From: a virus
Virus genome (UHGV): UHGV-0057547
Direction: 5' to 3' (one strand)
Length of the DNA: 64,000 nt
Made by a program: the position numbers and the translations under genes. Below the pieces are notes generated by a model. The model saw nothing but the letters and a program-made list of their open reading frames with translations. It had not been told where the DNA came from and searched no databases. Shown here piece after piece: positions 85 through 23,026 of the stretch (its first letter is position 1; every line of letters begins with the position of its first letter).

Positions 85-261
85 TTTGTTTTGCCTTTTG
101 CGAAGCAGTGGAAATTAGCTAAAAATGATGTTTTAGGGGGAGAAGAAGGAATAGAAGATTATGAAGATGTAGATAAAATATACAATGAACAAAATAAGAA
201 TAATACCGAAGTAGAAAATGAAGTAGAAGATGAAGTAGGTGAGGAAAACAATGACAAGTAG
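85..261 (+). CDS. 3' exon (C-terminal acidic tail) of an upstream intron-containing gene, partial
   Basis: Open frame from the presumed 3' splice site at 84/85 to TAG at 259-261. E/D-rich tail. Identity unknown; the position before TerL suggests small terminase or another packaging gene. Confidence 0.4.
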   Translation, partial: FVLPFAKQWKLAKNDVLGGEEGIEDYEDVDKIYNEQNKNNTEVENEVEDEVGEENNDK

Positions 262-401
262 TCCAAAAGAAAATGTTGAAAAAGAAGAAATACTTTCCGA
301 TGATGTCATGAAAAGTCCTCATAGAAAAAGAAGGAATTTATCCCAAAGAAAAAAAGATAGATTAAATGAAGGTATGAAAATATGGACTGCATTTTATAGG
401 T
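251..401 (+). CDS. terL: large terminase subunit, exon 1 (N-terminus; 3' boundary approximate)
   Basis: ATG 251 with SD GGTGAGG about 8 nt upstream. Basic N-terminus ...GMKIWTAFYR. The frame hits TAG at 410, just before the intron core (P element at 450), so the exon must end at or before about 409. Joining to 748 gives ...FYR-L-NIHRFALDFLGL... Confidence 0.45.
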
Positions 402-747
402 TAAATATTTAGCTTATTTTATTAGGTAACTAATAATCTAAACCCTTTGAATTGCTGGAAAGGACTTAGAGCCTATTGAACTACAACGTGACTAGAAATG
501 GTGAGCGTGAATGTTTAAAAATCAATAGGATTGTTTAATCAGCAGGTAAGATTCTAAATTGCTATAAACAATATGAATAAACTTCAACGACTAGAGTTTA
601 AACTCGTAGGCTACAAGTTATTGGTAGTCGAAGCGGAGGGCATCCTTTCATAGGATGAAGATATAGTCTGTTCTTATATGAAAATATAAGTAGTTCTTTA
701 TTTAATAAAGAACAGTATGTATGTAGCGAATACATATGAACATTTAG
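402..747 (+). mobile_element. group I intron (family A), ORF-less, TerL intron 1
   Basis: P AATTGCTGGAAA 450-461. Q AATCAGCAGG 537-546. R CTTCAACGACTAG 582-594. S AAGATATAGTCT 658-669. Terminal hairpin TATGTATGTAGCGAATACATAT then GAACATTTAG|. The 5' splice site is uncertain (about 400-425). Confidence 0.75.
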
Positions 748-863
748 TAAACATCCATAGATTCGCACTGGATTTTTTGGGACTTAATTTATATCCGTTC
801 CAAATTATATTGCTTTATATGATGAATATAATGTATAGCACTTGCCTAATATGTGCAAGGGGT
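748..863 (+). CDS. terL: large terminase subunit, exon 2 (Q-motif/Walker A region)
   Basis: Frame from 750 reads NIHRFALDFLGLNLYPFQIILLYMMNIMYSTCLICARG. LYPFQ resembles the TerL adenine-binding Q motif (L.PWQ). The exon ends ...AGGGGT, the family B insertion context. Confidence 0.6.
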
Positions 864-937
864 AAATAGATATGCTCCATTATATAGAAATATATAATTA
901 AAAATCAATCAAAATCGGTAAAAGTCTAAGTTTAATA

Positions 938-966
938 TTTACATTTTTTAGGAATATAAGTATAAT
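938..966 (+). promoter_or_regulatory. intron-internal sigma70-like promoter for the HNH ORF
   Basis: TTTACA 938-943, 17-nt spacer, TATAAT 961-966. SD AAAAGGGGTG then ATG 988. Confidence 0.5.
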
Positions 967-987
967 ATATAAAAGGGGTGAGATTAA

Positions 988-1773
988 ATGGGTAAAATAA
1001 TAAATAAATATGATAGAATAGGTGAAACATCGATATCAAAAGAAGGATATGAAATGAAAATAATTGAATATATTGATGCAAGACATATTCTAATAGAATT
1101 TCAAGATGAACATAAAACTAGGTTAATGTGTCAATATGGTGACTTTAAATGTAGAAAAAATATTAAAAATCCATATCATCCAGCAGTATATAAAATAGGG
1201 TATTTGGGACAAGGTAAATATAATAAAAAAAATTATCAACGTATATATTGGACATGGAAAGATATGCTGAGAAGATGTTATAGTGAAGAGTACTTAAAAA
1301 GAGAACCTTCTTATAGAGGCTGTTGTGTTTGTGAAGAATGGCATAATTTCCAAAACTTTGCTAAATGGTATGAAGAAAATTATTATGAAGTTGAGAATCA
1401 AAGAATGCATTTAGATAAAGATATACTTGTAAAAATGAATAAAACATATAGTCCACAAACTTGTATATTTGTTCCACAAATAATTAATAGTTTATTTATA
1501 ACATCTAAGGCTATAAGAGGAGAATATCCTATTGGCGTTTCAAGAAAACAGAATAAATTAATTGTTCAAATTAATAAATATGATGAAAATATGAAAAAAT
1601 CAAAATATACAATGGTAAAAAAATTTGAAATAGAAGAAGTAAATGAAGCATTTTTTTGCTATAAAACAGAAAAAGAAAATGAAATAAAGAAAAGAGCCGA
1701 TTTATTTAAAGAATATATTCCAAAAAAATTGTATAATGCATTATATAAATATAAAATTGAAATAACAGATTAA
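988..1773 (+). CDS. HNH-family homing endonuclease with AP2-type DNA-binding region (intron-encoded)
   Basis: WTWKDMLRRC...YRGCCVCEEWHNFQNFAKW and H-LDKD...N...C blocks as in phage HNH/AP2 homing endonucleases. Lies entirely inside family B element 864-2032. Confidence 0.55.
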   Translation: MGKIINKYDRIGETSISKEGYEMKIIEYIDARHILIEFQDEHKTRLMCQYGDFKCRKNIKNPYHPAVYKIGYLGQGKYNKKNYQRIYWTWKDMLRRCYSEEYLKREPSYRGCCVCEEWHNFQNFAKWYEENYYEVENQRMHLDKDILVKMNKTYSPQTCIFVPQIINSLFITSKAIRGEYPIGVSRKQNKLIVQINKYDENMKKSKYTMVKKFEIEEVNEAFFCYKTEKENEIKKRADLFKEYIPKKLYNALYKYKIEITD

Positions 1774-2032
1774 ATATGATAATACCGAGGTAAGATAGAA
1801 AATTAAAAAGTTCTATCCACTGTAGAGCATAGAGATTGAACCTTTGTAAGAACTATTATACAATAGTTCTTTTTTAATTGCAAAGAATAAAATATCTCCA
1901 AGAGTGATTGACACCTTACTATTAAGTTAAAGGTGAAAATATATGCCATACTGAGCTAGAATTGACTAGCTGATGAAAATGAGGGAAACCTCCAGAGGTT
2001 AAGATAAAAAACTTAACGTTAATAATGAATAG

Positions 2033-2125
2033 TTATCGAAATCGTATATGACAGCAATATTCCTTTGTTGTAAAGCAATATTATATCCAAATAGTTTAAT
2101 TGTAGTTTCTTGTTCAACTAAGGAG
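2033..2125 (+). CDS. terL: large terminase subunit, exon 3 (3' boundary approximate, 2125-2142)
   Basis: Only open frame from 2033 reads LSKSYMTAIFLCCKAILYPNSLIVVSCSTKEQARYN. The junction with exon 2 gives CARG-LSKS, a deviant Walker A P-loop. The exon ends in AGGAG next to the family A 5' hairpin. Confidence 0.5.
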
Positions 2126-2338
2126 CAAGCGAGATATAATGTCTCCTATATTAAGTGATTAGTATAGCAAATCTTTTGAATTGCTGGAAACTCCTAAAGC
2201 TCAATTCACTACAACGTAAGGTTAAATCCTAAGCGTGAATGTTACGAAAGTAGAAAAAAGTAATTGAGATGGTATAAGGTTAAATCCTAAGTACTTTTAC
2301 AATGGACAATCAGCAGGTAAGATTTATATTTATTTTAC

Positions 2339-2368
2339 TTTACTTTTAATAATTAATTTCGTATAATT
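2339..2368 (+). promoter_or_regulatory. intron-internal sigma70-like promoter
   Basis: TTTACT 2339-2344, 18-nt spacer, TATAAT 2363-2368, SD GGAGGTG, ATG 2392. The same about 80-nt block recurs at 6497-6579 and 21421-21503. Confidence 0.5.
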
Positions 2369-2391
2369 TAAGTAAATGGAGGTGAAATATT

Positions 2392-3327
2392 ATGGCATGG
2401 AAATATGAAGATGTGAAAAAGTATGTAGAATCATTTGGTTATAAATTAATATCAAAAGAATATAAGACTTGTAAAGATAAACTTCATTTAATGTGTCCTA
2501 ATGAAAGTGATTTTATTGTAAGATTTGATAATTTTAAAAATGCTAAACAACGTTGTAAATGTGATAAATGTAAAGGTAGAAATCCAAGAATGTTTTCTTA
2601 TGAATATGTAAAAGAATACATAGAAAAAGAAGGGTATAAATTAATATCAAAAGAATACAATGGAAATAAAAAACGTATAGAATTAGAATGCCCAAATGGT
2701 CATAAATGGAAAGTAAGATTTACTGATTTTAAAAATGGAAGAAGATGTTATTATTGTTCTTGTTGTTATAAACCTACCATTGGAGAAATTAGAATGAGAT
2801 TATCAAAATATGGTTATACATTGTTATCTGAAGAATATAAAAATGCAAATGAAAAAATTAATGTAAAATGCCCTAATGGTCATAAATATCCTACTACATA
2901 TCATAATTTTGATAATGGTAAAAGATGTCCATACTGTTATAATAAATATAGTAAAGGTGAGTATAGACTTATAAATTTATTTAATAATTATAAAATAAAC
3001 TATAAACATCAATATATTTTTAATGATTGTAGAGATATAAATCCTTTGCCATTTGATTTTTATTTATATGATTATAATTGTTGTGTAGAATTTGATGGAG
3101 AAGGGCATTATGAACCTAGAAATTGGAATGGAGCTTCAGATGAAAAAGCAATAGAAACATATAAAATAACGGTATTACATGATAAAATTAAAACACAATA
3201 TTGTAAGGATAATAGCGTAAAACTCATAAGAATACCATATTGGGAATTTAATAATATAGAAAACATTATTTGTCAAGAATTAAATATTAAAAGAAAACAA
3301 AGAAGAAAAGGTAATAAATTAAAATAA
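2392..3327 (+). CDS. intron-encoded homing endonuclease: 4 tandem Zn-ribbon-like modules + C-terminal Vsr/DUF559-like PD-(D/E)XK nuclease
   Basis: Repeated module Y(V/I)E..GYKLIS.EYK.....L...CPNGH.....F.NFKNG.RC..C x4. C-terminal block PLPFDFYLYDYNCCVEFDGEGHYE...KLIRIPYWEFNNIENII. Confidence 0.6.
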   Translation: MAWKYEDVKKYVESFGYKLISKEYKTCKDKLHLMCPNESDFIVRFDNFKNAKQRCKCDKCKGRNPRMFSYEYVKEYIEKEGYKLISKEYNGNKKRIELECPNGHKWKVRFTDFKNGRRCYYCSCCYKPTIGEIRMRLSKYGYTLLSEEYKNANEKINVKCPNGHKYPTTYHNFDNGKRCPYCYNKYSKGEYRLINLFNNYKINYKHQYIFNDCRDINPLPFDFYLYDYNCCVEFDGEGHYEPRNWNGASDEKAIETYKITVLHDKIKTQYCKDNSVKLIRIPYWEFNNIENIICQELNIKRKQRRKGNKLK

Positions 3328-3484
3328 ATATGAATAAACTTCAACGACTAAGTATCCTAGTAGTCTAGGTAGAGGAAGAGGTCTTATATTAATAAGATTG
3401 TGATATAGTCTGCTCTCATGCGAAAGCATGAGCAGTTCATAAAAGAACGGATAGAATAGTAACGATATTCTATTGAACATAAGG

Positions 3485-3617
3485 AATCTTATAAAGGAGA
3501 AGATAGCTAAAGAGCTATGTTCTCAATCGAAAATGTTAAATAGAGAAATTGCTAAAGTAGTCACTGGTACTAATGAAACAGTGGTTATCTTTAACAATGG
3601 TAGTACCATTCAAGTTT
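3485..3617 (+). CDS. terL: large terminase subunit, exon 4
   Basis: Frame from 3485 reads NLIKEKIAKELCSQSKMLNREIAKVVTGTNETVVIFNNGSTIQV until TAA 3617-3619. Consistent with the post-Walker-A region of TerL ATPases. Confidence 0.5.
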
Positions 3618-3826
3618 AATGCTTTGCACATTGAGTAATTAGTGTGTATAACCGATTGAATTGCTTGTAAATCCTAAAGCTAACTAAACTACAACGTAAC
3701 CTGAAAAGGTAAGCGTGAATGTAGCGAAAGCAGAAAAAATTAGTTAGATGGTATATGGTTAAATCCTAAGTACTTTTACAATGGAAGTCTAGCAGGGAAG
3801 ATTCTAAAATTATTTAAATTAAATAT

Positions 3827-3855
3827 TTGACTTTTAATAATATAAGTTGTATAAT
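3827..3855 (+). promoter_or_regulatory. intron-internal sigma70-like promoter
   Basis: TTGACT 3827-3832, 17-nt spacer, TATAAT 3850-3855, SD GGAGGTG, ATG 3878. Confidence 0.55.
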
Positions 3856-3877
3856 ATAAATAAATGGAGGTGATAAT

Positions 3878-4834
3878 ATGTCAAAAATAATGTGGGATGA
3901 AAAATCAATAAAAAAATTTGTTGAGCAATATAATCATGAATTCATTGAAATTATAGAATTTAATAACATAAGAAGTTTAATAAAAATTAAATGTAAAAAT
4001 AAAAAACACAAACCATTTGAAATAAAATTTACATCATTTAGACAAACTATGCTAAAAAATGGAAATTCTTGCAAAGAATGTAAAAAAGAAGCAAAAATGT
4101 TAAAAAGAGAAGATGTAGAAAACCTAATTAGAGAAAGAGGACTTATTTGGCTAGAGGGAGAGTATATAAGTAATGATACAAAAAATTTATTAGTATGGTG
4201 TGGAAATATTAATCATGAACCATTTTTAACAAGTCAAAATTATATATTATGTAATAATGGTAATAGTTGCAAAAAATGTGGTATAGAAAATAATGCAAAT
4301 AACAAAAGACTTTCATATGAGTATGTATATAACTATATAAAAAATGAGGGTGATGAACTATTATCAAAAACTTATGTAAACAATTCACAAAATTTAAAAA
4401 TTAAATGTGGTAAATGTAATAATGTATTTGAAACTTCATTTGGGCACTATCAAAATAAAGATAGAAGATGCTTATGTAAAGCTCAATCAAGAGGAGAATA
4501 TGAAATTAAACGAATATTTGATAAATATAATTTAATTGAAAATGTAGATTATGAATGTCAAAAAAAATACGAAGGATTAATTGGGGTTGGTGGTAGAAAA
4601 CTTTCTTATGATTTCTATATCAATAATACATTAATAGAATATCAAGGTTCTTATCATGATGGAACTGCTAGAAAACAAACAGATGAAGGATATGAGATAC
4701 AAAAGGAACATGATAAAAGAAAAAAAGATTATGCTAAAAATAATAACATTAATTTATTAGAGATATGGTATTGGGACTTTAATAATATAGAAAATATACT
4801 TATAGAAAATTTTAATTTAAATAATAATGAATAA
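3878..4834 (+). CDS. intron-encoded homing endonuclease, Zn-ribbon modules + divergent Vsr-like nuclease domain
   Basis: CKECK/CKKCG/CGKCN Cys pairs in repeated modules. C-terminal block KLSYDFYINNTLIEYQGSYHDG...LLEIWYWDFNNIENILIENF. Confidence 0.55.
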   Translation: MSKIMWDEKSIKKFVEQYNHEFIEIIEFNNIRSLIKIKCKNKKHKPFEIKFTSFRQTMLKNGNSCKECKKEAKMLKREDVENLIRERGLIWLEGEYISNDTKNLLVWCGNINHEPFLTSQNYILCNNGNSCKKCGIENNANNKRLSYEYVYNYIKNEGDELLSKTYVNNSQNLKIKCGKCNNVFETSFGHYQNKDRRCLCKAQSRGEYEIKRIFDKYNLIENVDYECQKKYEGLIGVGGRKLSYDFYINNTLIEYQGSYHDGTARKQTDEGYEIQKEHDKRKKDYAKNNNINLLEIWYWDFNNIENILIENFNLNNNE

Positions 4835-4999
4835 CCTTCAACGAACAAGTATCCTAGTAGTCTAGGTAGTGGTCGGTATCCTTAGTAAAGGATAATGATA
4901 TGTTCTGCTCTCATGTGAAAGCATGAGCAGTTTATGTGATTAATTAAAATTCACAAATAAACGGTATAAGGTATAACGAACCTTATATGAACACAAATG

Positions 5000-5028
5000 C
5001 AGTAAACGCTTCTCAAAATACAAGAGGT
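5000..5028 (+). CDS. terL: large terminase subunit, exon 5 (29-nt micro-exon, arginine-finger region)
   Basis: Reads (S/L)VNASQNTRG. It ends in AGAGGT, the same GGT context as exon 2. Joined to exon 6 it gives NTRG-LRCHVLVVDEY, the (S/T)xRG...hhhhDE arrangement common in TerL ATPases. Confidence 0.5.
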
Positions 5029-5044
5029 AAATTTTTCATATCAC

Positions 5045-5073
5045 TTTACATTTTTTAATAATTAGAGTATAAT
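5045..5073 (+). promoter_or_regulatory. intron-internal sigma70-like promoter for the LAGLIDADG ORF
   Basis: TTTACA 5045-5050, 17-nt spacer, TATAAT 5068-5073, SD AAGGGGG. Confidence 0.5.
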
Positions 5074-5086
5074 ATAAACAAAGGGG

Positions 5087-5956
5087 GTGATTGAATTGAA
5101 ATGGACTAAGGATATGGAGCAATACTTAATTGATAATTATAATAAATTAACTATTGAAGAATTAGCTAAAAATATAGGAGTAACAAAATCCTCAATAATA
5201 AATAAAGCTTTTTCATTAAAAATAACAAATAATGTTAAAAATAAAGATAGAGGAAATATTAATATATTTAAAAATATAAATTCAGAAGAAAGTGCTTATT
5301 GGTTAGGATTTATATATGCTGATGGTTATATAGTTAAAAGTGAAAATGATAAAAAACATCATAATTATGAATTAGGTATAGAACTTCAAGAATCTGATAT
5401 TTCTCATTTGAAAAAATTTAATAAAATATTTAATGATTATTATAAAATAAAAACAAGAATCAGAAAAATGGATTCATTGGATATTTTAAATGGAAATGAA
5501 GTTTCAAATAGATTAAATAAAACTTGTTTGATAAGAATATATAATAAAGAAATAGTTAATGATTTAATAAAAAATAATATTGTTCAAAATAAAACTAATT
5601 CAGATATATTTCCTATTATAGATGATGACAATATGTTTTTACATTTTTTAAGAGGATATATTGATGGCGATGGTTCTTATGTTGTTGATAGTAAAAATAG
5701 ATACATAATATCAATTCAAGGTAATAATAAAAAATGTTTTGAATTTATATCTAATAAGTTATTAACAAGTTTTAATATTAATTCATATATAACAAAAGAT
5801 AAAACAGGTTGGAAATTAAATATAAGAAAAAAAGATGATGTTTTAAAATTAATAGATTTAATGTTTAATAATTCAAATATTTATTTAGATAGAAAATATG
5901 AGAAAGTAAAAGATATGAAAAAAGCCGTCTTTAATAGAAATATTAAAGATAATTAG
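5087..5956 (+). CDS. LAGLIDADG homing endonuclease (two LAGLIDADG motifs); start uncertain (GTG 5087, TTG 5096 or ATG 5111)
   Basis: AYWLGFIYADGYI and LRGYIDGDGSY motifs. C-terminus NRNIKDN is shared with the second LAGLIDADG ORF at 31569. Confidence 0.7.
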   Translation: MIELKWTKDMEQYLIDNYNKLTIEELAKNIGVTKSSIINKAFSLKITNNVKNKDRGNINIFKNINSEESAYWLGFIYADGYIVKSENDKKHHNYELGIELQESDISHLKKFNKIFNDYYKIKTRIRKMDSLDILNGNEVSNRLNKTCLIRIYNKEIVNDLIKNNIVQNKTNSDIFPIIDDDNMFLHFLRGYIDGDGSYVVDSKNRYIISIQGNNKKCFEFISNKLLTSFNINSYITKDKTGWKLNIRKKDDVLKLIDLMFNNSNIYLDRKYEKVKDMKKAVFNRNIKDN

Positions 5957-6275
5957 AGAACAAAATCGGTCATAGTAAATCGTAAGATTAAGCTGATAAG
6001 AGAGCCTAAGTCCTTATAGGATATGGTAATACCGAGGTAAGATAGAAAATTAAAAAGTTCTATCCACCGTAACGCATAGAGATTGAACCTTTGTGAGAAC
6101 TATTATACAATAGTTCTTTTTTAATTACAAAGAATAAAATATCTCCAAGAGTGTTCTCCACCTTATCATTAAGTTGAAGGTGAAAATATATGCTGGACTG
6201 GGTATGAATTGACATACCATAATGCGAGGAAACTCCTAGAACTAGAGGATAAAAAGCCTTTAGGATAACAAAACG

Positions 6276-6325
6276 TTAAGATGCCATGTACTCGTGGTTG
6301 ATGAGTATAGAATGATACAAGGAGT
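6276..6325 (+). CDS. terL: large terminase subunit, exon 6 (50-nt micro-exon with Walker B)
   Basis: Reads LRCHVLVVDEYRMIQG(V). VLVVDE is a Walker B hhhhDE motif. It ends with the GGAGT 5' strand of the family A P1 hairpin. Confidence 0.6.
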
Positions 6326-7865
6326 AATATATAGCTCCCTATGTTTATAAAAAGCATAGAAAAACTCTTTAATTGCTGGAAACTCCTAAAGTCCTATAAA
6401 CTACAACATGATTAGAAATAATGAGTGTGAATGTTACGAAAGTAGAAAAAATTATAGGAATGGTATATGGTTAAATCCTAAGTACTTTTACAATGGACAA
6501 TCAGCAGGTAAGATTTATATTTATTTTACTTTACTTTTAATAATTAATTTTGTATAATTTAAGTAAATGGAGGTGATAAAATGTTAAAATATAATAATGA
6601 TTATATTATCAATTATATAAATGAAAATTATAAAAATTTTAAAATAGTAAGTATAGATGGTAATGGAAAGGAAGCTATTGTAACTTTATGGTGTGGCGTT
6701 AGTGGTCATAAACATATACAATGCACATTTGCTAATCTTTTATATAAAGATAGTTTTCACTGTAGAGAATGTAAAAAAGATGATAAGATAAACGAAATAA
6801 AAAAGATTATAGGTGATGAATATCAAATAATCTCAATAGATTATATTAGTAATGATTGGATAAGAAGTAGAGCTATATTATGGTGTGGAATAGAAGGACA
6901 TGAATATATTGATGTATCTTTTAAATCAATAATAAATGGAAATATTATTGGATGTAAATTATGTAGAAAAAATAAACATATATTAAAAATAAAAGAAAAT
7001 GTAGAAAAAGTTAATAAAAAATTAATAGAAGTAAAAAAATATAATGAAAAAGATTATCACAAATCAAGAATAATAGTATCTTGTGGTAATGAAAAACATG
7101 AATTAATAGAGACTTCTTTAAATAAAATTATAAATTCAAACGTTAAATGTAAGGATTGCATAAAAGAAGATAATATTAATAAAATGATGCTATATATAAA
7201 TTCTACTCAATACAAATTTAATAAAATTGTAAAATATTGTGAATCAGATTATATAAAAAGTATGGTAGAAATAACATGTCCAAAAGATGAAACCCACATA
7301 TTTACAATGAGATTTTCTAATTTTAAATATGAAGGTAAAAGATGTCCTCATTGTGGTATGACTTATGGTGAACAAGAAGTTGCAAATGTATTAAAAAGAT
7401 ACAATATAAAATATAAATTTCAATATAAATATAAAGATTGTAGATTTATAAATCCTCTTCCTTTTGATTTTTATTTACCTGATTATAACATATTAATTGA
7501 ATACGATGGTAAACAACATTATGAATCAGTAGATTTATTTGGTGGAGAAAAAGGTTTTAAATATACAAAACAAAATGATGGAATAAAAAATCAATACTGT
7601 AAGAATAATAATATAAAATTAATAAGGATACCATATTGGTGTTTTAATAATATAGAAGAAATATTAATTAAAGAATTAAAAGTAAACATAAATAAATATG
7701 AATAAACTTCAACGACTAGAACGTAAGTTCGTAGGGTGTAAGTGATTGACACTCGAAATGGGAGTTACCTAATAATAGGTAGTGATATAGTCTAGTCTCA
7801 TATGAAAGTATGAGCAGTTCATAAGAGAACGTACATAACGTAGCGAATTATGTAGAATATAACGG
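6326..7865 (+). mobile_element. group I intron (family A) with homing endonuclease gene; TerL intron 6
   Basis: P1-like GGAGT/GCTCC hairpin 6321-6337. Hairpin CTATGTTTATAAAAAGCATAG. P 6371-6382. Q 6499-6508. ORF 6581-7705. R 7707-7719. S 7783-7792. Terminal hairpin TACATAACGTAGCGAATTATGTA then GAATATAACGG| at about 7864-7865. Confidence 0.75.
6581..7705 (+). CDS. intron-encoded homing endonuclease, Zn-ribbon modules + Vsr/DUF559-like nuclease
   Basis: Modules with WCG..GH...C.F....CReCKK and CK.C. C-terminal block PLPFDFYLPDYNILIEYDGKQHYE...KLIRIPYWCFNNIEEILIKEL. Preceded by promoter TTTACT at 6530-6535 and TATAAT at 6553-6558. Confidence 0.6.
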   Translation: MLKYNNDYIINYINENYKNFKIVSIDGNGKEAIVTLWCGVSGHKHIQCTFANLLYKDSFHCRECKKDDKINEIKKIIGDEYQIISIDYISNDWIRSRAILWCGIEGHEYIDVSFKSIINGNIIGCKLCRKNKHILKIKENVEKVNKKLIEVKKYNEKDYHKSRIIVSCGNEKHELIETSLNKIINSNVKCKDCIKEDNINKMMLYINSTQYKFNKIVKYCESDYIKSMVEITCPKDETHIFTMRFSNFKYEGKRCPHCGMTYGEQEVANVLKRYNIKYKFQYKYKDCRFINPLPFDFYLPDYNILIEYDGKQHYESVDLFGGEKGFKYTKQNDGIKNQYCKNNNIKLIRIPYWCFNNIEEILIKELKVNINKYE

Positions 7866-8021
7866 TTTTGATACATTAAACTCAGTATTAAGACCATTCT
7901 TAAACTGTGTTAGAATACCAAAATTTAAGAATAGAGATGATGGAAAATATGCAGATTATCCATCAGAGGAAAACCAAGAGATTTATTTGAGCAGTGCATT
8001 AAAACTAGTGCAAACTATGGT
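7866..8021 (+). CDS. terL: large terminase subunit, exon 7
   Basis: Reads (V/G)FDTLNSVLRPFLNCVRIPKFKNRDDGKYADYPSEENQEIYLSSALKLVQTM(V). Ends ...ATGGT before the family B start GAAATGTAGATA. Confidence 0.5.
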
Positions 8022-8341
8022 GAAATGTAGATAGCTATAGTTGAGTATCAATCAAAATCGGTCATATGTATAGTGATATACATGGTAAGAAAGACTAAGT
8101 GTTAATTTAACATAAGTTGATACCGAGGTAAGTTAAGGAACTAAAAAGCCTTATCCACTGTAACGCATAGAGATTGAACCTTTGCAAGAACTATTATATA
8201 ATAGTTCTTTTTTAATTGCAAAGAATAAAATATCTCCAAGAGTGATTGACACACGCTACATTTATTGTGTGAAAATATATGCTGAACTTATAGGAAACTA
8301 TAAGAACTAAAGGATAAAAAGCCTTTAGGATAACAATTTGG
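8022..8341 (+). mobile_element. family B intron-like element, ORF-less (about 320 nt); TerL intron 7
   Basis: AAAATCGGT 8054-8062, GACTAAGT, ATACCGAGGTAAG 8120-8132, CTCCAAGAGTG, GTGAAAATATATGC. Terminal hairpin CTAAAGGATAAAAAGCCTTTAG then GATAACAATTTGG| at 8341. The minimal size is consistent with a ribozyme-only element. Confidence 0.6.
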
Positions 8342-9428
8342 GTTCGAGAATCATTGGAGTTATGACCTCTATTCTTCCCATGTTAAGAAAATGTTAGCAG
8401 GTGATGATTATTTTGTATGTAATTTACCTTATCAATTATCTGCTTATCATGGAATATTAACTAAAAAAAGAATACAAGATATTTTATCAGATGAGAATAT
8501 GTCGGAAATATCATTTATGATGGAATTTGAAGCATTATTTTATTCTGATAAAGATACTAGTTATTTTAAATCAAGTGACATATTACCTTGTAGAACATTG
8601 GAATATGCATGGTATCCTCCAACACCTGAGGAATATTATAGAAATAAAAATAAAGAGAAAAAGAGTTATCATTTGAAGAAATTAAATGATAAAGAACTTA
8701 GAATAATTAGTTGTGATATAGCCTTAATGAATAGTAAAAATGGACATGACAACGATAATGCCGTATTTACTTTTATAAGAAGTATTCCAAAGAATCAAAA
8801 TTATATATCACAAGTTTTATGGCAGGAAACCTATGATGGTTGTACAGCTAAACAATTAGCATTAAATATAAAAAGATTATATTTTGACACTCAAAGTGAT
8901 TATATAGTACTAGATACTGCCGGTAATGGGATATCTGTGTTAGATGAGTTAGGTGAATATACAACAGATGTAGAAAGAGGAATAGTTTATCCTCCATTGA
9001 AAGCAATGAATGATGAAAAATATGAAGAACGTTGTGGTTATTCTGAGGCACAAAAATCTATATTTTGTGTTAATGGTAACTCAAAGTTTAACCACGAAAT
9101 TGCAGTAACCCTTAAAACAGCATTTCAAAATAAAACCATTAGATTATTAAAAACACAATTTGAAGCAGATGACTTTATAGAAGGATATCATAAGATGTCT
9201 CCTAAAGAACAAGCTGACAAATTAATGCCTTATATTCAAACTTCTTTAATGCAAGATGAAATAACTCAATTGGAATATGAAATAAAAGATTCTTATATTA
9301 AACTTTATGAAACCACAGGTAAACGTAAGGATAGATATTCAAGTTTAGCTTATGGTAATTATTTTATAAGAGAAAGAGAAAAAAAATTAAAGAAAAAGAA
9401 AAAAGGTGGATTAGCTAATCTATGGTAG
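8342..9428 (+). CDS. terL: large terminase subunit, exon 8 (C-terminal RNase H-like nuclease domain)
   Basis: The frame is open from 8334 with no start codon before it. IISCDIALMNSKNGHDNDNAVFTFIR ... VLDTAGNGISV match the terminase nuclease-domain acidic motifs. The listed ORF start at 8391 is an internal Met. Confidence 0.75.
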
Positions 9429-9465
9429 TCTTATTAAAATATTGAGAAAGAAAGGGATGATATGA

Positions 9466-10364
9466 GTGAGTGAAGAAAAAAAGCAAAAGAAGTTGTTTGC
9501 AGAAACTTCTGTAGCTAACAATGCACAAAAATATACAACTAAACCAGTTAAATATAGTGCTAGTGAAATAATGGGATTCTTAGAAGACCCACAAGCAAAT
9601 GCACTTAACTTACAAAAAGCTAGTATTTGGTTGTATTATAATAGTGGTATATACAATAGAATAATTAATAACTATGCTGGTATGAATATCTATGATTTAT
9701 ATTTATATCCAACTACAATTAGTAAATTTTCTAAATCAAAAAGAAAAATAACACCTGATAAATTATATAAAGATTATTTAGATATAAGTAATTTATTAGA
9801 AAGAATTAGTTGGAAATCAAATTATCGTAATATAGGAGTTAACCTTATGATACAAGGAGAAGTTTTCTTATATGATGTATCTGATAATCAAGGTACTATA
9901 TTAAAAGAAATACCAACTGAAATATGTAAAATATGTAAGGTTATAAATGATAATTTATATAAATATGCAATCAATGTAAATAAATTAGGTACAGCAGAAT
10001 ATTATTCAATGATGCCTTTAGGATTACAAAGATTATATGACCAACATAAAGCAGGTTCACTATCACCTGAACAATATTTAGGAACTGCTGGTTCAGGTTA
10101 TGTAATAGTAGATGACCCTGAAGCAATATGTTTAAGTTTAAATAATATGACTTCAACAAAATCTGTTCCAACTTTATCTTATTTATTTCCTTCATTATTA
10201 AGATTAATGGAAGAAGAAGAAAATGAAGTTGTGGAAAATAAAGCTAATAATTTAAAAATGATACATATGCAATATGATGTAGATGAAGAAGGCGAATCAA
10301 GAATAGCTGAAGCTGACCTTATAAAAATGCATAATTCAGCTAAAGCCAATTTACCAGTAGGAGT
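9466..10364 (+). CDS. portal protein, exon 1 (3' boundary +/- 1 nt)
   Basis: GTG 9466. Long N-terminal portal-like sequence. Ends at AGGAGT, which forms a P1-like hairpin with GCTCC at 10372-10376. The stop at 10387 lies inside the intron. Confidence 0.55.
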
Positions 10365-11679
10365 AACATATAGCTCCCTATGTTTATAAAAAGCATAGAA
10401 AACTCTTTTAATTGCTGGAAACTCCTAAAGCTCAATTCACTAAAACATAATCTGAAAATGATAAGTGTGAATGTTACGAAAGTAGAAAAAAGTAATTGAG
10501 ATTACCCAAGGTTAAATCCTAAAGGTGAATGAATGGACAATCAGCAACCAAGATTTTAAGTTTAATTCATTGATTTTTAATATAATATAAAATAAAGTGA
10601 GGTAATTAATATAGCATTAAAATGGACTGAAGAAAAAATAATAGAATTTATAAATAATGAAAATTATATAGTAAAAAAAATAATAAGTGGAATTGGAAAA
10701 GAAACGAGATTATTGGTATGGTGTGGTAATCCTAATCATAAACCATATAAAGTTATTTTTAATAATTTTAAAAGAGGAACAAGATGTCAGTCTTGTTATG
10801 ATGAAAGAAGAAGAAAATGGACTGATGAAATTATTAAAGAATATTTAGAAAGTTATAAATATAAACTAATAGAAATTATAAAATCTAAAGGCGTTCAATC
10901 TATTGTAAAAATAAAATGTCCTAAATGTGGATATGTATATACTATTAAATTTGATACATTTAGAAATGGTCGTAGATGTATGCAATGTTTTCTTAAAGAA
11001 AATAGAATTAGTGAAGAAGAAATAAAAAAAATAATAAAAGATAATAAAGATATATTAATAGATATTGAGTATCATAGTTTAGATAGTATTTTATATTTAT
11101 ATTGTAATAAATGTAAAAAAAATTATCCTATTACATTTTATTGGTATTTAAAAGGCGGAAGATGCAAGTTTTGCAAAGAATCAAGAGGGGCTAGAAAAAT
11201 AAGAGAATATTTAGAAAATAAACAATATAATTTTAAACAAGAATTTAGAATTAAAGAATGTAGATATAAATTTCCATTACCATTTGATTTTATGGTTACT
11301 ATAAATGATAATATTATTTTAATAGAATTCGATGGGTTAGAACATTATGAACCTATTGAGTATTTTGGAGGTATAGTTAAATTTAATGAAAGAAAAAGAA
11401 ATGATAATATTAAAAATCAATATTGTAAAGATAATAATATAAAACTTATAAGGATTCCATATTGGGAATATGACAACATAGATGAAATATTAAATAAAGA
11501 ATTAAACTTAAAATAAGGTTCAACGACTAGAGCGTAAGCTCGTAGAGTGTAAGTGATTGACACTCGAAATGGAGAGTATCTAATAATAGGTAGTGATATA
11601 GTCTAGTCTCATATGAAAGTATGAGCAGTTCATAAGAGAACGGATTAGGAGTAGCGACCCTAATTGAATACAACGTTTG
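10365..11679 (+). mobile_element. group I intron (family A) with homing endonuclease gene; portal intron
   Basis: P 10410-10421. Q variant AATCAGCAACC 10539-10549. ORF 10713-11516. R 11518-11530. S 11595-11604. Terminal hairpin ATTAGGAGTAGCGACCCTAAT then GAATACAACG(TTTG)|. The 3' splice site is 11675 or 11679 depending on the donor phase. Confidence 0.75.
10713..11516 (+). CDS. intron-encoded homing endonuclease (Zn-ribbon modules + Vsr-like nuclease); true start probably upstream (non-ATG, about 10608-10611)
   Basis: The frame is open from 10608. SD GTGAGGT at 10596-10602 is followed 8 nt later by ATA GCA TTA AAA TGG ACT GAA GAA, parallel to the 21491 ORF. C-terminal block FPLPFDFMVTINDNIILIEFDGLEHYE...KLIRIPYWEYDNIDEIL. 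Confidence 0.55.
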   Translation: MVWCGNPNHKPYKVIFNNFKRGTRCQSCYDERRRKWTDEIIKEYLESYKYKLIEIIKSKGVQSIVKIKCPKCGYVYTIKFDTFRNGRRCMQCFLKENRISEEEIKKIIKDNKDILIDIEYHSLDSILYLYCNKCKKNYPITFYWYLKGGRCKFCKESRGARKIREYLENKQYNFKQEFRIKECRYKFPLPFDFMVTINDNIILIEFDGLEHYEPIEYFGGIVKFNERKRNDNIKNQYCKDNNIKLIRIPYWEYDNIDEILNKELNLK

Positions 11680-12241
11680 TGTAAATACTAACCCTTTGAA
11701 AGTACAAGCATTAACATTACAAAGAACTGGTAATGTAAATGCAAGTAATAGACAAACATTAACTGAATTAGTTTATAATAATTCAGGTGTTAATAGTGAG
11801 ATATTCAATGGTAATCAAAGTAATAACCAAGCTATACTTACTGGAGTAACAGCAGATGAAATATATTGTGATGTTTTAAATAATGTATTTGAAAACTATA
11901 CTAAATATAGAGTAAAACAATTAAAAAGAAATCCTTTATGGATGGTTAGATTTGTAAGAAACACTCAATACAATAAACAAACTTTAGTAACAGAATCAAT
12001 GCAAGGTTGTACAGTAGGATTATCAAGAATGAAATTTTTAGCTTGTAATCATTATGCACCATTAGAAGCATTATCATTACTTGAATTTGAAACTGAAAAT
12101 GGTATAGATGAATTCTTTGTACCTCTAGCTACTTCTTACACTCAAAGTGGAGATGAAGAAGAAGAATTAGGTAGACCTAAGAATTCAGAAAACCCTGATA
12201 ATCAAAAAGATGTTGGCGAGAATCCTGATAGCACTAAATAA
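11680..12241 (+). CDS. portal protein, exon 2 (acidic C-terminus)
   Basis: The frame is open from 11636 with no ATG. Junction GV-(C)VNTNPLKVQALTLQRTG. D/E-rich C-terminal tail typical of portals. Confidence 0.55.
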
Positions 12242-13098: not shown

Positions 13099-13502
13099 GA
13101 TTAGCTCCCTATATGGAGTGATTCATATAGCAAACTCTCTGAATTGCTTGTAAATCCTAAAGCTAACTAAACTACAACGTGATTGGAAACAATGGGCGTG
13201 AATGTGGCGAAAGCAGAAAAAATTAGTTAGATGGTATATGGTTAAATCCTAAGTACTTTTACAATGGAAGTCTAGCAGGTAAGATTCTAAATTACTATAA
13301 GTGATATGAATAAACTTCAACGACTATTGAAATAATTGTAAGAACCTTATTACAATTAAAGTAAAGTACATTCAAGTGAATGGAAGTAGAGAGTGTCTTA
13401 TTTAATTAATGTAAGATAATGATATAGTCTCAACGTTTAGCGAAAGCTAAAGAAGTTCATAAGAGAACTGCATAAGAATAACGAACTTATGTGAAGATAT
13501 TG
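13099..13502 (+). mobile_element. group I intron (family A), ORF-less; prohead protease-scaffold intron
   Basis: P variant AATTGCTTGTAAA 13142-13154. Q-like AGTCTAGCAGG 13270-13280. R CTTCAACGACTAT 13315-13327. S GATATAGTCT 13431-13440. Terminal hairpin CATAAGAATAACGAACTTATG then GAAGATATTG| at 13502. Confidence 0.75.
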
Positions 13503-15737: not shown

Positions 15738-17070
15738 AACTTAGTTTACTAGACAGCCCCCTATGTTTGTAAAAAGCATAGCAAATCCTTTTAATTGCTG
15801 GAAACTCCTAAAGCTCAATTCACTACAACGTAAGGTTAAATCCTAAGCGTGAATGTTACGAAAGTAGAAAAAAGTAATTGAGATTACCCAAGGTTAAATC
15901 CTAAAGGTGAATGAATGGACAATCAGCAGGGAAGATTTTAATTAACACTTAATTTTTTATAAGTTTATGAGTATAATATAAATAAGTGGAGGTGATGAAA
16001 ATGACAAGAAAGATTTGGAATGAAATTACAATAAAAGAATTTATAGAAAATGAAACAAATTATAAATTCATATCAATGGTTAAATTAAATGGAATGAAAT
16101 CAATAGTGCTAGTATGGTGCGGTAATACTAATCATAAACCTTATAAAGTTCGATTTGATGCATTTAAAGGTACTTCTAAAAAAGAAGGAACGAGATGTGA
16201 ACAATGTAGAAGAGAAAAGGATACTATTTGGACTAAAGATGAAATTATAAAATATGTAGAATCTCAAGATTATAAATTTATAAGATTTGTAAAATTTAAT
16301 AAATATGCAAGTATAATAGAAATTCAATGTAATAAAGGACACGAATCATATGAAACATACTTTAGTAATTTCTATAATAATAGAAGATGTTTTCAATGTC
16401 ATATAATATGGTCTAAAAAAGATATTATTAATTTTATAGAATCTCAAAATTATAAATTTATAAGATTTATAACATATGAAAAAAATAATAGTTTAATAGA
16501 GATAAAGTGTCCTAAAGGACATATGAATCAAGTTAGATTTAGAAAATTTAAAGAAGGAACTAGATGCACAGAATGTAATAAGTCTAAAGGTGAGGAAAAA
16601 GTAAAAGATATATTAAAAGAAATGTGTATAGATTTTAAATCACAATACAAATTCAAAGATTGTAAATGTAAAAAAGAGTTGCCATTTGATTTTTACATAC
16701 CTTCATTAAATATTGCAATAGAATATGATGGAATACAACATTTTGAAATATTACCACATTGGGGTGGTATTGATAAACTTATAGAAACTAAAATACATGA
16801 TGAAATAAAAACACAATATTGTAAAAGAAAAAGAATAAAACTTATTAGAATTCCTTATTGGGAATTTAAAAATATAGAAAACATACTTATAAAAGAATTA
16901 GTGTTAAATTAGAATAACCTTCAACGACTAGAGCATAAGCTCGTACACTCAAGTGGGTGGAAATGGAGGATACCTAGAAATAGGTAGTGATATAGTCTTG
17001 TCTCATGTGAAAGCATGAGCAGTTCATAAGAGAACGGATTAGGAGTAACGACCCTAGTCGAAAATAAACG
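15738..17070 (+). mobile_element. group I intron (family A) with homing endonuclease gene; major capsid intron
   Basis: Hairpin CTATGTTTGTAAAAAGCATAG. P 15793-15804. Q 15921-15930. ORF 16001-16912. R 16918-16931. S 16989-16998. Terminal hairpin ATTAGGAGTAACGACCCTAGT then GAAAATAAACG| at 17070. The acceptor is ambiguous (17050, 17070 or 17092). Confidence 0.75.
16001..16912 (+). CDS. intron-encoded homing endonuclease (Zn-ribbon modules + Vsr-like nuclease)
   Basis: ATG 16001 is 7 nt after SD GGAGGTG. TATAAT at 15972-15977. C-terminal block ELPFDFYIPSLNIAIEYDGIQHFE...KLIRIPYWEFKNIENILIKEL. Confidence 0.6.
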   Translation: MTRKIWNEITIKEFIENETNYKFISMVKLNGMKSIVLVWCGNTNHKPYKVRFDAFKGTSKKEGTRCEQCRREKDTIWTKDEIIKYVESQDYKFIRFVKFNKYASIIEIQCNKGHESYETYFSNFYNNRRCFQCHIIWSKKDIINFIESQNYKFIRFITYEKNNSLIEIKCPKGHMNQVRFRKFKEGTRCTECNKSKGEEKVKDILKEMCIDFKSQYKFKDCKCKKELPFDFYIPSLNIAIEYDGIQHFEILPHWGGIDKLIETKIHDEIKTQYCKRKRIKLIRIPYWEFKNIENILIKELVLN

Positions 17071-21107: not shown

Positions 21108-21253
21108 ATGGCTACACTATTTGCTATAAAAGATGCAATAGATTTAAAAATAACTAAAAAAGGTGAATCAGCAGTTTTCACTACAATAGACTACTTAAAT
21201 GAATGTCAAATACAAATGGACTCAGAACAAGTATATGCTCTTAAAAAAGGAGT
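21108..21253 (+). CDS. major tail protein, exon 1
   Basis: ATG 21108 with SD AAAGGTG. Ends AGGAGT with P1-like hairpin GGAGTAATTTGCTCC. Confidence 0.5.
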
Positions 21254-22596
21254 AATTTGCTCCCTATGTAAGTAAATTGCATAGCAAATCCTTTTAATTG
21301 CTGGAAACTCCTAAAGCCTTGCAAACCACAACGCAACTTGAAAAAGTAAACGTGATGGTGACGAAAGTAGAAAAAATTGTAAGGATTACCCAAGGTTAAA
21401 TCCTAAAGGTGAATGAATGGACAATCAGCAGGTAAGATTTATATTTATTTTACTTTACTTTTAATAATTAATTTCGTATAATTTAAGTAAATGGAGGTGG
21501 TAGATATAAAATGGACAGAAGATAGAATTAAAGAATATGTTGAAAATCAAGGATATACTTATATAAAAAGAATTGAAGGAAAAGCAAGTATGTCGATTAT
21601 AGAAGTTTGGTGTGGAAATCTTAATCATAAATCTTATAGGGTTATGTTTAAAAATTTTAAAGGTAATAAAGCAAAAAAACCAACAAGATGCCCATATTGT
21701 AGTAAAAATAAAAAATTAACCATTGAAGAAGTAAGAGTATTTGTTGAAAAATATGATTTTAGTTTATTATCTGTAGAATATATTAATAATAGAACTCCAT
21801 TAACACTACAATGTAAAAATGGACATATATTTTCAATAAGATTAGATAATTTTAAACAAAGTTTAAAATGTCCAATGTGTTATAGACATTATGGTGCTTA
21901 CACCGAAGATGAAGTTAAGCAATACCTTGAAAGTTTTGGTTATGAATTACTGAATAAATATATAGATATACATAAAAAAATAATAATTAAATGCCCTAAA
22001 GGTCATATTTATAAAACTTCATTTAATAGTTTTAAAAATAATGGAACTAGATGTTCTATTTGTAGAAAATCAAAAGGTGAAGAAAAAATATCTAAAACAT
22101 TAAAAGAATTAAAAATAAAATTCATAAGTCAATTTGTATTCGATGATTGTCAATATAAAACATATCTTCCATTTGATTTTTATTTACCTGAATATAATAT
22201 ATTAATTGAATACGATGGGATTCAACACTATGAACCTGTAGACTTTGGTGGTAAAGGAAATGAATGGGCAAATAAACAACTCGAATTAACAAAAATAAAA
22301 GACAATATAAAAACACAATATTGTGAAAATAATAATATAAAACTTATAAGAATATCTTATTGGGAATTTGATAGCATAGAAAATATATTAAGTAAAGAGT
22401 TAAAAGTAAGAAAATAAATATGAATAAACTTCAACGACTATTCCGTAAGGAAGTAAAGCCACAAGCTATTGGTGGAAGAAATGGAGGATACCTAGAAATA
22501 GGTAGTGATATAGTCTGTTCTCATGTGAAAGCATGAGCAGTTTATATTGAATGAGTATAAACGATGTATGTGTAGCGAACATATGTGAACACAAAG
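21254..22596 (+). mobile_element. group I intron (family A) with homing endonuclease gene; major tail protein intron 1
   Basis: P 21295-21306. Q 21423-21432. ORF 21491-22417. R 22429-22440. S 22507-22516. Terminal hairpin ATGTATGTGTAGCGAACATAT then GAACACAAAG| at 22596. Confidence 0.75.
21491..22417 (+). CDS. intron-encoded homing endonuclease (Zn-ribbon modules + Vsr-like nuclease); start ambiguous
   Basis: The listed ATG is part of the SD ATGGAGGTGG. The likely initiation is about 21497-21506 (GTG or ATA). C-terminal block YLPFDFYLPEYNILIEYDGIQHYE...KLIRISYWEFDSIENILSKEL. Confidence 0.55.
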   Translation: MEVVDIKWTEDRIKEYVENQGYTYIKRIEGKASMSIIEVWCGNLNHKSYRVMFKNFKGNKAKKPTRCPYCSKNKKLTIEEVRVFVEKYDFSLLSVEYINNRTPLTLQCKNGHIFSIRLDNFKQSLKCPMCYRHYGAYTEDEVKQYLESFGYELLNKYIDIHKKIIIKCPKGHIYKTSFNSFKNNGTRCSICRKSKGEEKISKTLKELKIKFISQFVFDDCQYKTYLPFDFYLPEYNILIEYDGIQHYEPVDFGGKGNEWANKQLELTKIKDNIKTQYCENNNIKLIRISYWEFDSIENILSKELKVRK

Positions 22597-22651: not shown

Positions 22652-23026
22652 CTAGTACAGCGTATGTAAAGAAATTTACATAGGACACAACCTTAAAACC
22701 AGTAACTCCTAAAGCTCAACAACTACAACAAAGGATAGAATCAGAAACCTTTGTGAATGTGAGGAAACTCTGAAACAATAGTTGAGATGATATATGGCGA
22801 GAGCCTAAGTATTGTAACAATGGATGTTTGGTCGCCAAACTTAGAAATAAGAAGGTCAAACGACTATGATTTGAAAGAATCATAAAGCCTCAAGCGAATG
22901 GAGGAAGAAATGGGTTGCCCCTAACAGATAATGCTGAGGGTGAAGAAATAGTCTAGTCACTCTAGGAAACTAGGTGCTTAGAATTGACTAAGGTTTATAA
23001 GTTGCGATTATAAATAAATATTAACG
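22652..23026 (+). mobile_element. group I-like intron (divergent family A subtype), ORF-less; major tail protein intron 2
   Basis: Degenerate P AAAACCAGTAACTCC at 22695-22709. R GGTCAAACGACTATG at 22854-22868. S GAAGAAATAGTCTAG at 22941-22955. The 3' terminal block GTGCTTAGAATTGACTAAGGTTTATAAGTTGCGATTATAAATAAATATTAACG| is shared with the elements ending at 84 and 41131. Confidence 0.6.

Follow-up and report, generated by a model that had tools for sequence, protein, structure and literature searches.

A phage large-terminase gene in eight exons, apparently colonised by seven group I introns of two families

Where is the large terminase subunit (TerL) encoded in the virus genome UHGV-0057547? 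The stretch of it analysed here, 64,000 nucleotides (nt) long and hereafter the window, is AT-rich (about 25% G+C), and a program-made list of open reading frames (ORFs) for positions 251–9428 holds short TerL-like fragments, five endonuclease-like ORFs of 261–374 amino acids (aa) and one C-terminal ORF of 345 aa. The last is the longest with TerL sequence, and no single ORF in that list encodes a terminase ATPase, just as an earlier note on this DNA had claimed in proposing that the terminase motifs are joined only after splicing. In this follow-up, we find that 251–9428 is one TerL gene of an SPbeta/phiCD211-like phage, with 1,800 coding nt in eight exons and with seven introns that account for 7,378 nt, or 80% of its length. 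We conclude, with a probability of roughly 0.9, that the gene has been colonised by seven mobile group I introns and is spliced to an mRNA for a TerL of 599 aa.

Joined in order, the eight exons give an uninterrupted ORF of 1,800 nt:

251–401, plus strand: TerL exon 1, 151 nt, codons 1–50 plus 1 nt, with the ATG at 251.
748–863, plus strand: TerL exon 2, 116 nt, where the Q-motif LYPFQ lies and Walker A begins (CARG).
2033–2134, plus strand: TerL exon 3, 102 nt, with LSKS of Walker A and VVSCSTKEQAR.
3485–3614, plus strand: TerL exon 4, 130 nt, encoding NLIKEKI...TGTNETVVIFNNGSTIQ.
5000–5028, plus strand: TerL exon 5, a 29-nt micro-exon encoding (A)VNASQNTRG, which holds R175 and G176.
6276–6324, plus strand: TerL exon 6, another micro-exon, 49 nt long or, with U6325 kept, 50 nt; its product, LRCHVLVVDEYRMIQG, comprises Walker B and its catalytic glutamate.
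7865–7999, plus strand: TerL exon 7, 135 nt, encoding GFDTLNSVLRPF...EIYLSSA.
8341–9428, plus strand: TerL exon 8, 1,088 nt, covering the last part of the ATPase domain and all of the C-terminal half.

The first line of evidence for this structure is the homology of the joined product. A protein search, made with a first conceptual splice of 602 aa that was later corrected to 599 aa, retrieves 607 homologues, the best of which are uninterrupted proteins of 594–603 aa with 68–72% identity over 95–100% of the query; the top one (P0001) has 602 aa and is 72% identical at 99% coverage. A chance match is excluded, because there are 607 such homologues and the best E-value is 1.7e-293 at that coverage. 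The search gave no close full-length spliced protein of possible transcript-assembly origin, the best full-length match being the one at 72% identity. The corrected product aligns with 15 homologues free of gaps at every junction, keeps all residues that are invariant in the TerL family, and matches the PHROG family phrog_2 (terminase large subunit) over residues 37–588 (E = 1.5e-22). By tblastn, it finds single-piece annotated terminase genes in phiCD211-like Clostridioides phages and SPbeta-like Bacillus phages, with 38–41% identity over 91–94% of the query. A profile alignment with the ATPase of T4 gp17, weak in E-value (0.019), agrees motif by motif, pairing YPFQ with YQ (of LRDYQ), ARGLSKS with SRQLGKT, VRG with TRG and HVLVVDE with AMIYIDE. 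Together, the profile alignment, the PHROG match and the annotated terminases place an adenine-binding Q, Walker A, and Walker B with its catalytic glutamate in the product. Its C-terminal residues 240–599 are conserved, with D363, D429 and D515 among the invariant positions, and lie inside the phrog_2 match.

Each of the seven introns is inserted one or two residues at most from an invariant ATPase position and within the first 238 residues, and there is none in the C-terminal 60% of the protein. The motif order given in the earlier note is borne out (with a caret for an intron position or predicted join): LYPFQ in exon 2, CARG^LSKS across junction 2, VVSCSTKEQA in exon 3, TGTNETVVIFNNGS in exon 4 and NTRG^LRCHVLVVDEY across junction 5. 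Walker A is split by intron 2 as RG^LSKS. The "deviant" P-loop ARGLSKS that the note had singled out is present but unrelated to the introns, because it is kept in the closest intron-less homologues and corresponds to SRQLGKT of T4 gp17. The note's arginine finger, R175 of NTRG in exon 5, is invariant among homologues, as is G176, and sits just upstream of the Walker B strand. P74-26 has its trans-acting finger, R139, in this position, and T4 has an arginine there (PMC5727402), so that calling it an arginine finger is a reasonable analogy. Of the sizes the note had proposed, 29 nt for exon 5 is right, 50 nt for exon 6 becomes 49 nt by the intron-less allele unless the U of a P1 U.G pair is kept, and 630 aa for the spliced product has to give way to 599 aa.

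The second line of evidence comes from relatives that lack individual introns. The 345-aa ORF of exon 8 is 98% identical to a protein (P0027) found on 22 contigs, and the contigs that bear it are of 170–210 kb and carry the SPbeta-type structural genes YonG, YonD, YonB and YomX. Ten relatives (L001–L010), with contigs 93–98% identical and from independent assemblies (ENA, JGI, Logan), were compared with the window, making 11 genomes. Over the eight exons, the window has no frameshift and no stop and is 93–100% identical to the ten. Each relative has three to five of the TerL introns, in differing combinations: L004 is without introns 1, 2, 4 and 5, L002 and L008 without introns 2 and 3, L005 without introns 2–5, and L001 and L010 without intron 6. 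Such natural intron-less alleles fix junctions 1–6 at the DNA level, and alignment with intron-less TerL proteins places them without gaps. In the following lines a raised point marks the natural join, and the genomes in brackets lack the intron:

Junction 1 (L004): intron-less TATAGGC·TAAACATCC (L004 reads TATAGGCTAAACATCC); window TATAGGT^TAAACATCC, with T at –1.
Junction 2 (L001–L005 and L008): intron-less GCAAGGGGG·TTATCG, fused as GCAAG(G/A)GGGTT(A/G)TC(G/A)AAA; window with T at –1.
Junction 3 (L002, L005 and L008): intron-less GCGAGA·AATCTT.
Junction 4 (L001 and L004–L007): intron-less TTCAAG·CAGTAAA.
Junction 5 (L004–L007 and L010): intron-less AGAGGT·TTGCGC.
Junction 6 (L001–L003, L008 and L010): intron-less CAAGGAG·GTTTTGAT.

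Junction 7, where GCAT^GGTTCG restores the invariant tryptophan W238, has no intron-less allele among the 11 genomes.

The third line of evidence is the architecture of the intervening DNA, which falls into two families, A (introns 1, 3, 4 and 6) and B (introns 2, 5 and 7), and is that of group I introns in A and probably also in B. All seven predicted introns end in G, and in both families the guide sequences covary with the exon ends between insertion sites:

402–747, plus strand: intron 1, family A, 346 nt, ORF-less; P1 GGU/GCU with the canonical U.G at –1; a 1,383-nt ORF-bearing form in L002, L005 and L008.
864–2032, plus strand: intron 2, family B, 1,169 nt; guide GCUCC (874–878) pairs with exon GGGGU.
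2135–3484, plus strand: intron 3, family A, 1,350 nt; P1 GAGA/UCUC, then a U.G pair; insert exactly U...G, with A at –1; a 352-nt ORF-less form in L004, L006 and L007.
3615–4999, plus strand: intron 4, family A, 1,385 nt; G at –1.
5029–6275, plus strand: intron 5, family B, 1,247 nt; endonuclease gene in the P1 loop; guide GCCGUCUU (5924–5931).
6325–7864, plus strand: intron 6, family A, 1,540 nt; P1 GGAG/CUCC, then a U.G pair; a 378-nt ORF-less form in L005.
8000–8340, plus strand: intron 7, family B, 341 nt, ORF-less; P1 GCAU/GUGC with the canonical U.G; in all 11 genomes, with an 844-nt endonuclease-gene insertion in L001, L003, L004 and L010.

For family A, the Rfam model RF00028 (Intron_gpI) matches intron 1 over 392–690 with 92.8 bits (gathering score 50; E = 9.3e-25) when only 385–765 is searched, and introns 3, 4 and 6, whose cores are interrupted by endonuclease genes, align to common 5' and 3' family A profiles (E from 1e-35 to 1e-56). 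Elements P, Q, R and S, read by eye, are UGAAUUGCUGGAAA, AUCAGCAGGUAAGAU, CUUCAACGACUAG and GAUAUAGUCUG, and the guide pairings are GGAG/CUCC (at five sites), GAGA/UCUC, AAG/CUU, GGGG/CCCC and CUGG/CCAG. By BLAST, the family has matches in Twort-like Staphylococcus phages and in Clostridium phage D-1873, where the matching stretch is annotated as a "Group I catalytic intron", and IMG/VR has more than 100 family A matches. By these likenesses, family A is best read as a set of Twort-orf142-like, IA-type group I introns.

Family B shows strong covariation, with compensatory changes at 31 of 36 predicted pairs in an alignment of 44 sequences, covering P6, P7 (GCAUA/UAUGC), an inserted P7.1 (GAGAU/AUCUC), P8 and two P9 hairpins. 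By eye, P3 can be read as UCAAUC/GAUUGA in intron 7 and as GAGAAC/GUUCUC in intron 5, and P4 and P/Q/R/S-like elements can be made out as well; these elements are related to those of family A but distinct (AAAAUCGGU, AUACCGAGGUAAG, GCAUAGAGAUUGAAC and AAAAUAUAUGCUGAAC). Its guide pairings are GGGGU/GCUCC, GCAU/GUGC and AAGAGGU/GCC(G)UCUU, and a U.G pair stands at the 5' site in all three introns. The family is widespread, occurring in 61 phage records, and more than 119 IMG/VR stretches hold an exact 14-mer of it. We propose that family B represents a second, IA-like group I family with a P7.1, one that goes undetected by the Rfam model. Group II introns and inteins were considered for the intervening sequences and are excluded by the lengths of 340–1,540 nt, the in-frame stops and the group I core.

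Several points weigh against our account of the locus. The evidence at its centre is comparative and comes from DNA, and seven consecutive splicings around exons of 29 and 49 nt would carry a risk of exon skipping, which has been reported for Twort and SIOphi (PMC11878797). The Pfam model Terminase_6N scores below threshold on the product (17.6 bits versus a cut-off of 22). Rfam returned no group I intron at the gathering threshold on the 64-kb window or at E ≤ 10 on 12 kb, and family B has no Rfam match even when searched alone (E ≤ 10). The whole-window miss is a filter effect, because RF00028 reaches its 92.8 bits on the 381-nt slice. Finally, with splice sites placed from DNA, the –1 base is A at intron 3 and G at intron 4, not the U of a supposedly universal U.G pair, and splicing at the U.G of these two introns would bring stop codons into TerL.

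The last point concerns a rule, since the U.G pair is held to be "completely conserved" and U at –1 serves one database as an intron-boundary filter (PMC11835236). In family A, the guide pairs with the last four exon bases and a U.G pair then closes the P1 loop. Against intron-less alleles, the insert is exactly U...G not only at introns 3 and 4 but also at the intron of a portal-like gene downstream (GGAG^U...G^TTTGTG) and at the intron at 13102, and reading frames demand a U-first intron at 21253 and 41476 as well. At the 15741 copy, the frame is kept only if cleavage precedes the U and the intron ends in G; a minimum-mismatch comparison there assigns the U to the exon and makes C the last intron base. 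Counted together, the 5' ends with the U of the top P1 U.G inside the insert are 2135, 3615, 10367, 13102, 15741, 21253 and 41476, each preceded by A or G. Cleavage after the U would add one base, shifting the frame of TerL, the portal gene and other genes, with stop codons in the first two. Intron 1 has the canonical arrangement (GGU^, where the intron-less allele has C), and intron 6 and the 30739 copy fit either reading. Among relatives in IMG/VR, the pair just below the top pair is U.G (L021, L030), U-A (L097) or G-C (L099), which suggests that the site of cleavage is determined by its place in the helix and not by the wobble pair.

The strongest alternative to our splice model is that splicing strictly follows a U at all seven introns, so that the mature TerL carries small insertions or substitutions at junctions 3, 4 and 6 (e.g., KEQARYNNLIKEKI, IQVSVNAS and QGVFD), with joins reading GATATAAT^AATCTT or CAAGTTT^CAGTAAA. 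It would respect the invariance ascribed to U at –1 and the behaviour of Twort orf142 I1–I3, whose P1 architecture is the same and whose frames fit only a splice after U; a 602-aa ORF can be had with U2140 and U3617 as 5' splice sites, and at junction 6 the canonical choice is in frame. However, the U's actually in the U.G pair, U2135 and U3615, give a frameshift with any nearby 3' G, and the other U's, with which the frame is kept, do not pair convincingly with the guide. The insertions would fall in segments of constant length in 16 homologues and replace the invariant A167, and the inserted DNA is exactly U...G at introns 3 and 4, at the portal intron and at 13102. We consider this alternative improbable. 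Our first splice model, with U-ending exons at introns 3 and 4, was of this kind and was abandoned, as its 602 aa include 2 + 1 additional residues where no homologue varies in length. Other ways of saving the canonical U.G at these two introns also failed: alternative 3' G's bring frameshifts or stop codons, sliding the junction is impossible at intron 3, the sites share no context that would suit programmed frameshifting, and compensating exon indels are absent in 90-nt alignments.

What would follow for the 5' splice site is a more tentative matter. A Twort-like subclass, comprising introns 3, 4 and probably 6, the portal intron and the copies at 13102, 15741, 21253 and 41476, may need no U at the end of the upstream exon: the first intron U would pair with a purine atop P1, cleavage would fall one base pair lower, whichever pair stands there (G-C, A-U, U-A or, in L021 and L030, U.G), and helix position would set the 5' site. 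We hold this generalisation to be possible, at somewhat less than an even chance. If it is true, the intron would carry its own wobble and could invade a wider range of sequences; non-U sites, an odd feature deduced here from DNA, would, if real, challenge the rule that databases use as a group I boundary filter. A helix ruler counted from P2 fits most copies without a spacer but fails for L099 and Twort, and is not claimed. We found no experimentally mapped junctions for introns of the non-U layout; among the places where they were sought, the annotation of Staphylococcus phage Romulus has no join coordinates and the supplement of a Bastillevirinae survey no coordinates. The tail-tube gene of Staphylococcus phage DELF3 (Silviavirus; L014), at 1125–2620, apparently has four consecutive Twort-like introns and is annotated as a truncated coding sequence of 339 nt, but is too diverged for its junctions to be read.

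It could also be held that the locus is a decaying pseudogene, a TerL shredded by endonuclease cassettes or repeats that are never removed, with no functional TerL made from it. That no ORF with TerL sequence exceeds 345 aa, and that canonical U.G splicing at introns 3 and 4 leads to stop codons, would fit such decay. Yet eight exons free of frameshifts and stops and 93–100% identical to those of ten relatives, with every family-invariant residue kept, speak against it; the intervening sequences have conserved ribozyme cores and covariation, the portal and other essential genes are interrupted alike, and the arrangement recurs in the 170–210-kb contigs from independent samples. We regard a pseudogene as very improbable. 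An assembly artefact, whether a chimaera of intron-bearing and intron-less strains or a collapse of repeats of the two intron families, can practically be dismissed: three family B cores 86–93% identical over 135 nt and at least 13 family A copies in the window are repeats of a kind that can mislead assemblers, but every intron–exon boundary is reproduced base for base in several of the independent assemblies, in differing combinations, and the cores that are repeated fall short of the full introns and have unique endonuclease genes beside them.

Five of the introns contain ORFs for putative homing endonucleases:

988–1773, plus strand: endonuclease gene of intron 2, 261 aa, HNH; phrog_953 (E = 2.2e-54).
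2392–3327, plus strand: endonuclease gene of intron 3, 311 aa; phrog_559 (E = 2.4e-64), with Pfam CapR and zinc-ribbon matches.
3878–4834, plus strand: endonuclease gene of intron 4, 318 aa; phrog_559 (E = 8.4e-42).
5087–5956, plus strand: endonuclease gene of intron 5, 289 aa, LAGLIDADG; Pfam PF14528 (E = 1.7e-14) and phrog_4645 (E = 4e-38).
6581–7705, plus strand: endonuclease gene of intron 6, 374 aa; phrog_559 (E = 6.9e-57) and phrog_9084, homing endonuclease (E = 1.3e-33).

The phrog_559 family is that of the Vsr-fold endonucleases in TerL introns of Bastillevirinae, and EDxHD endonucleases occur in the TerL introns of Romulus and Remus (PMC11878797, including its Table S1). The best plus-strand promoter-like matches lie 20–25 nt upstream of all five endonuclease ORFs, with sites of 11/12 at 938–966 (intron 2), 3827–3855 (intron 4) and 5045–5073 (intron 5), although the overall count of such matches is not above chance. 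In intron 5, the last codons of the ORF (AAA GCC GUC UUU AAU AGA AAU AUU AAA; window 5921–5956) double as guide sequence and P2. A short repeat, AATTAGAG, at 5059–5066 and 5951–5958 flanks most of the intron 5 ORF module. Among the relatives, introns 1, 3, 6 and 7 exist both with and without an endonuclease gene, which is the pattern expected of a homing cycle. An eighth TerL site, GTGGT^TGATGAG, lies inside the Walker B codons: it has a family B-like intron in L002 (9121–9449), L008 (7871–8198) and L003 (about 8350–8604), and none in the window.

The earlier note had also called the sites of two family B introns paralogous and suggested that one element invaded both. The two sites are indeed much alike, as GCAAGGGGT^TTATCG at junction 2 and ACAAGAGGT^TTAAGA at junction 5 are identical at 10 of the 11 bases of CAAGNGGT^TTA; by rough estimate, about 1 in 10,000 comparisons of this kind would give such a match by chance. 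That a single element reached both is plausible: no two of the three introns are closer than 2 and 5, which are 93% identical over 135 nt (P4' to P7.1) and 75% downstream, versus 86–90% and 59–66% for the corresponding stretches of either against intron 7. However, later recombination between cores within one genome explains this similarity about as well as a single jump, because the guides differ (GCUCC versus GCCGUCUU), the endonuclease genes differ and sit in different loops, and L001 has at junction 5 an ORF-less, diverged family B intron with the same guide sequence and P2 as intron 5.

Taken together, we envisage that the whole 9.2-kb stretch would be transcribed, that each intron would fold with its guide paired to the last 3–7 bases of the upstream exon, and that a two-step, guanosine-initiated reaction would remove each of them, presumably by self-splicing, to leave the 1,800-nt mRNA for the 599-aa TerL. 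Only in the spliced RNA would the sequences for the ATP-binding loop, for the conserved RG and for Walker B be contiguous, as the earlier note had it, and the gap-free homologues, the intron-less relatives and the group I architecture support this by comparison rather than by transcripts. Five introns, with their own endonuclease genes and promoter-like sites, could spread into intron-less alleles during co-infection, and we propose that this is why presence and absence form a mosaic among the relatives.

TerL is not the only gene so affected, and profiles of the 5' and 3' halves find 13 family A copies in the window. Positions 1–85 hold the 3' end of a fourteenth (GAAATAGTC, a hairpin, then GTAAATATTAACG^TTTG), which interrupts an upstream yonG-like gene that is likewise split in several relatives. 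The total in 64 kb comes to at least 14 introns of family A and three of family B:

9466–12000: portal-like gene, split at 10366^11676 by a family A intron with an endonuclease gene at 10713–11516.
13102–13499, 15741–17067, 21253–22596, about 22700, 30739–31088, 32757–33127, about 39749 and 41476–42978: further family A introns in downstream structural genes, some ORF-less.

For the copies near 22700 and 39749, the 3' half was not found. The portal-like gene gives a 307-aa fragment in the window versus an ORF of 486–487 aa in the intron-less L005, L009 and L010. In Romulus (JX846613; L253), positions 8301–11928, the only annotation of the portal gene is a misc_feature, and an IS605 OrfB (TnpB) gene lies within it, which suggests an interruption of IStron type.

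These observations matter in several ways. With its seven introns, in a window of 64 kb that has at least 17, this gene bears the densest group I intron load we found for a phage gene. Eleven near-identical genomes with introns present or absent, four of these introns with or without an endonuclease gene, let the homing cycle be studied as a natural experiment. The introns escape both gene callers and an Rfam scan of the whole window, so that such phages will seem to be without TerL and portal genes, and routine Rfam scans would miss every intron of this genome.

How does this gene compare with known systems? The tail tube gene orf142 of phage Twort has three group I introns, as Landthaler and Shub reportedly described in 1999. 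Family A is homologous to its intron orf142-I2 (a query with that ribozyme sequence matched Twort at 98.6%), and R and S elements, 3' hairpin and tail are common to both by eye. Alike are also several related introns in one gene, micro-exons (41 and 23 nt in orf142; GenBank AF132670), the P1/P2 layout and the terminal G. Unlike the gene studied here, orf142 has three introns rather than seven, one family rather than two, and no endonuclease genes in its introns. In Twort, the annotated 142-aa product results only if the exon ends with the U of the P1 U.G, whereas at introns 3 and 4 here this U would be the first intron base.

The mobile group IA2 introns of T4 td, nrdB and nrdD likewise have an endonuclease gene with its own expression signals in a peripheral loop, are inserted into the most conserved and catalytically important codons, and vary in presence among close relatives, but they occur one per gene and with the canonical U.G at the splice site (the homing site of I-TevI is TTGGGT^CTACCG). 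That phage TerL genes can harbour group I introns is well established, and a TerL intron is known from Lactobacillus phage LL-H. Closest in host gene are the TerL group I introns of the Bastillevirinae phages SIOphi, phiAGATE, Grass and SPG24 and of the Staphylococcus phages Romulus and Remus (PMC11878797), which are also multiple, of IA2 type, and contain phrog_559 (Vsr/EDxHD-like) endonucleases. A small internal exon and exon skipping were found there by cDNA sequencing in phiNIT1 and SIOphi, and that survey of 52 genomes gives a maximum of three introns per gene and six per genome (PMC11878797), whereas here a single gene has seven and the 64 kb have at least 17, in an SPbeta/phiCD211-like lineage of about 25% G+C. 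Multi-intron TerL genes and micro-exons have precedents, and the present gene is of a known kind but far beyond that range.

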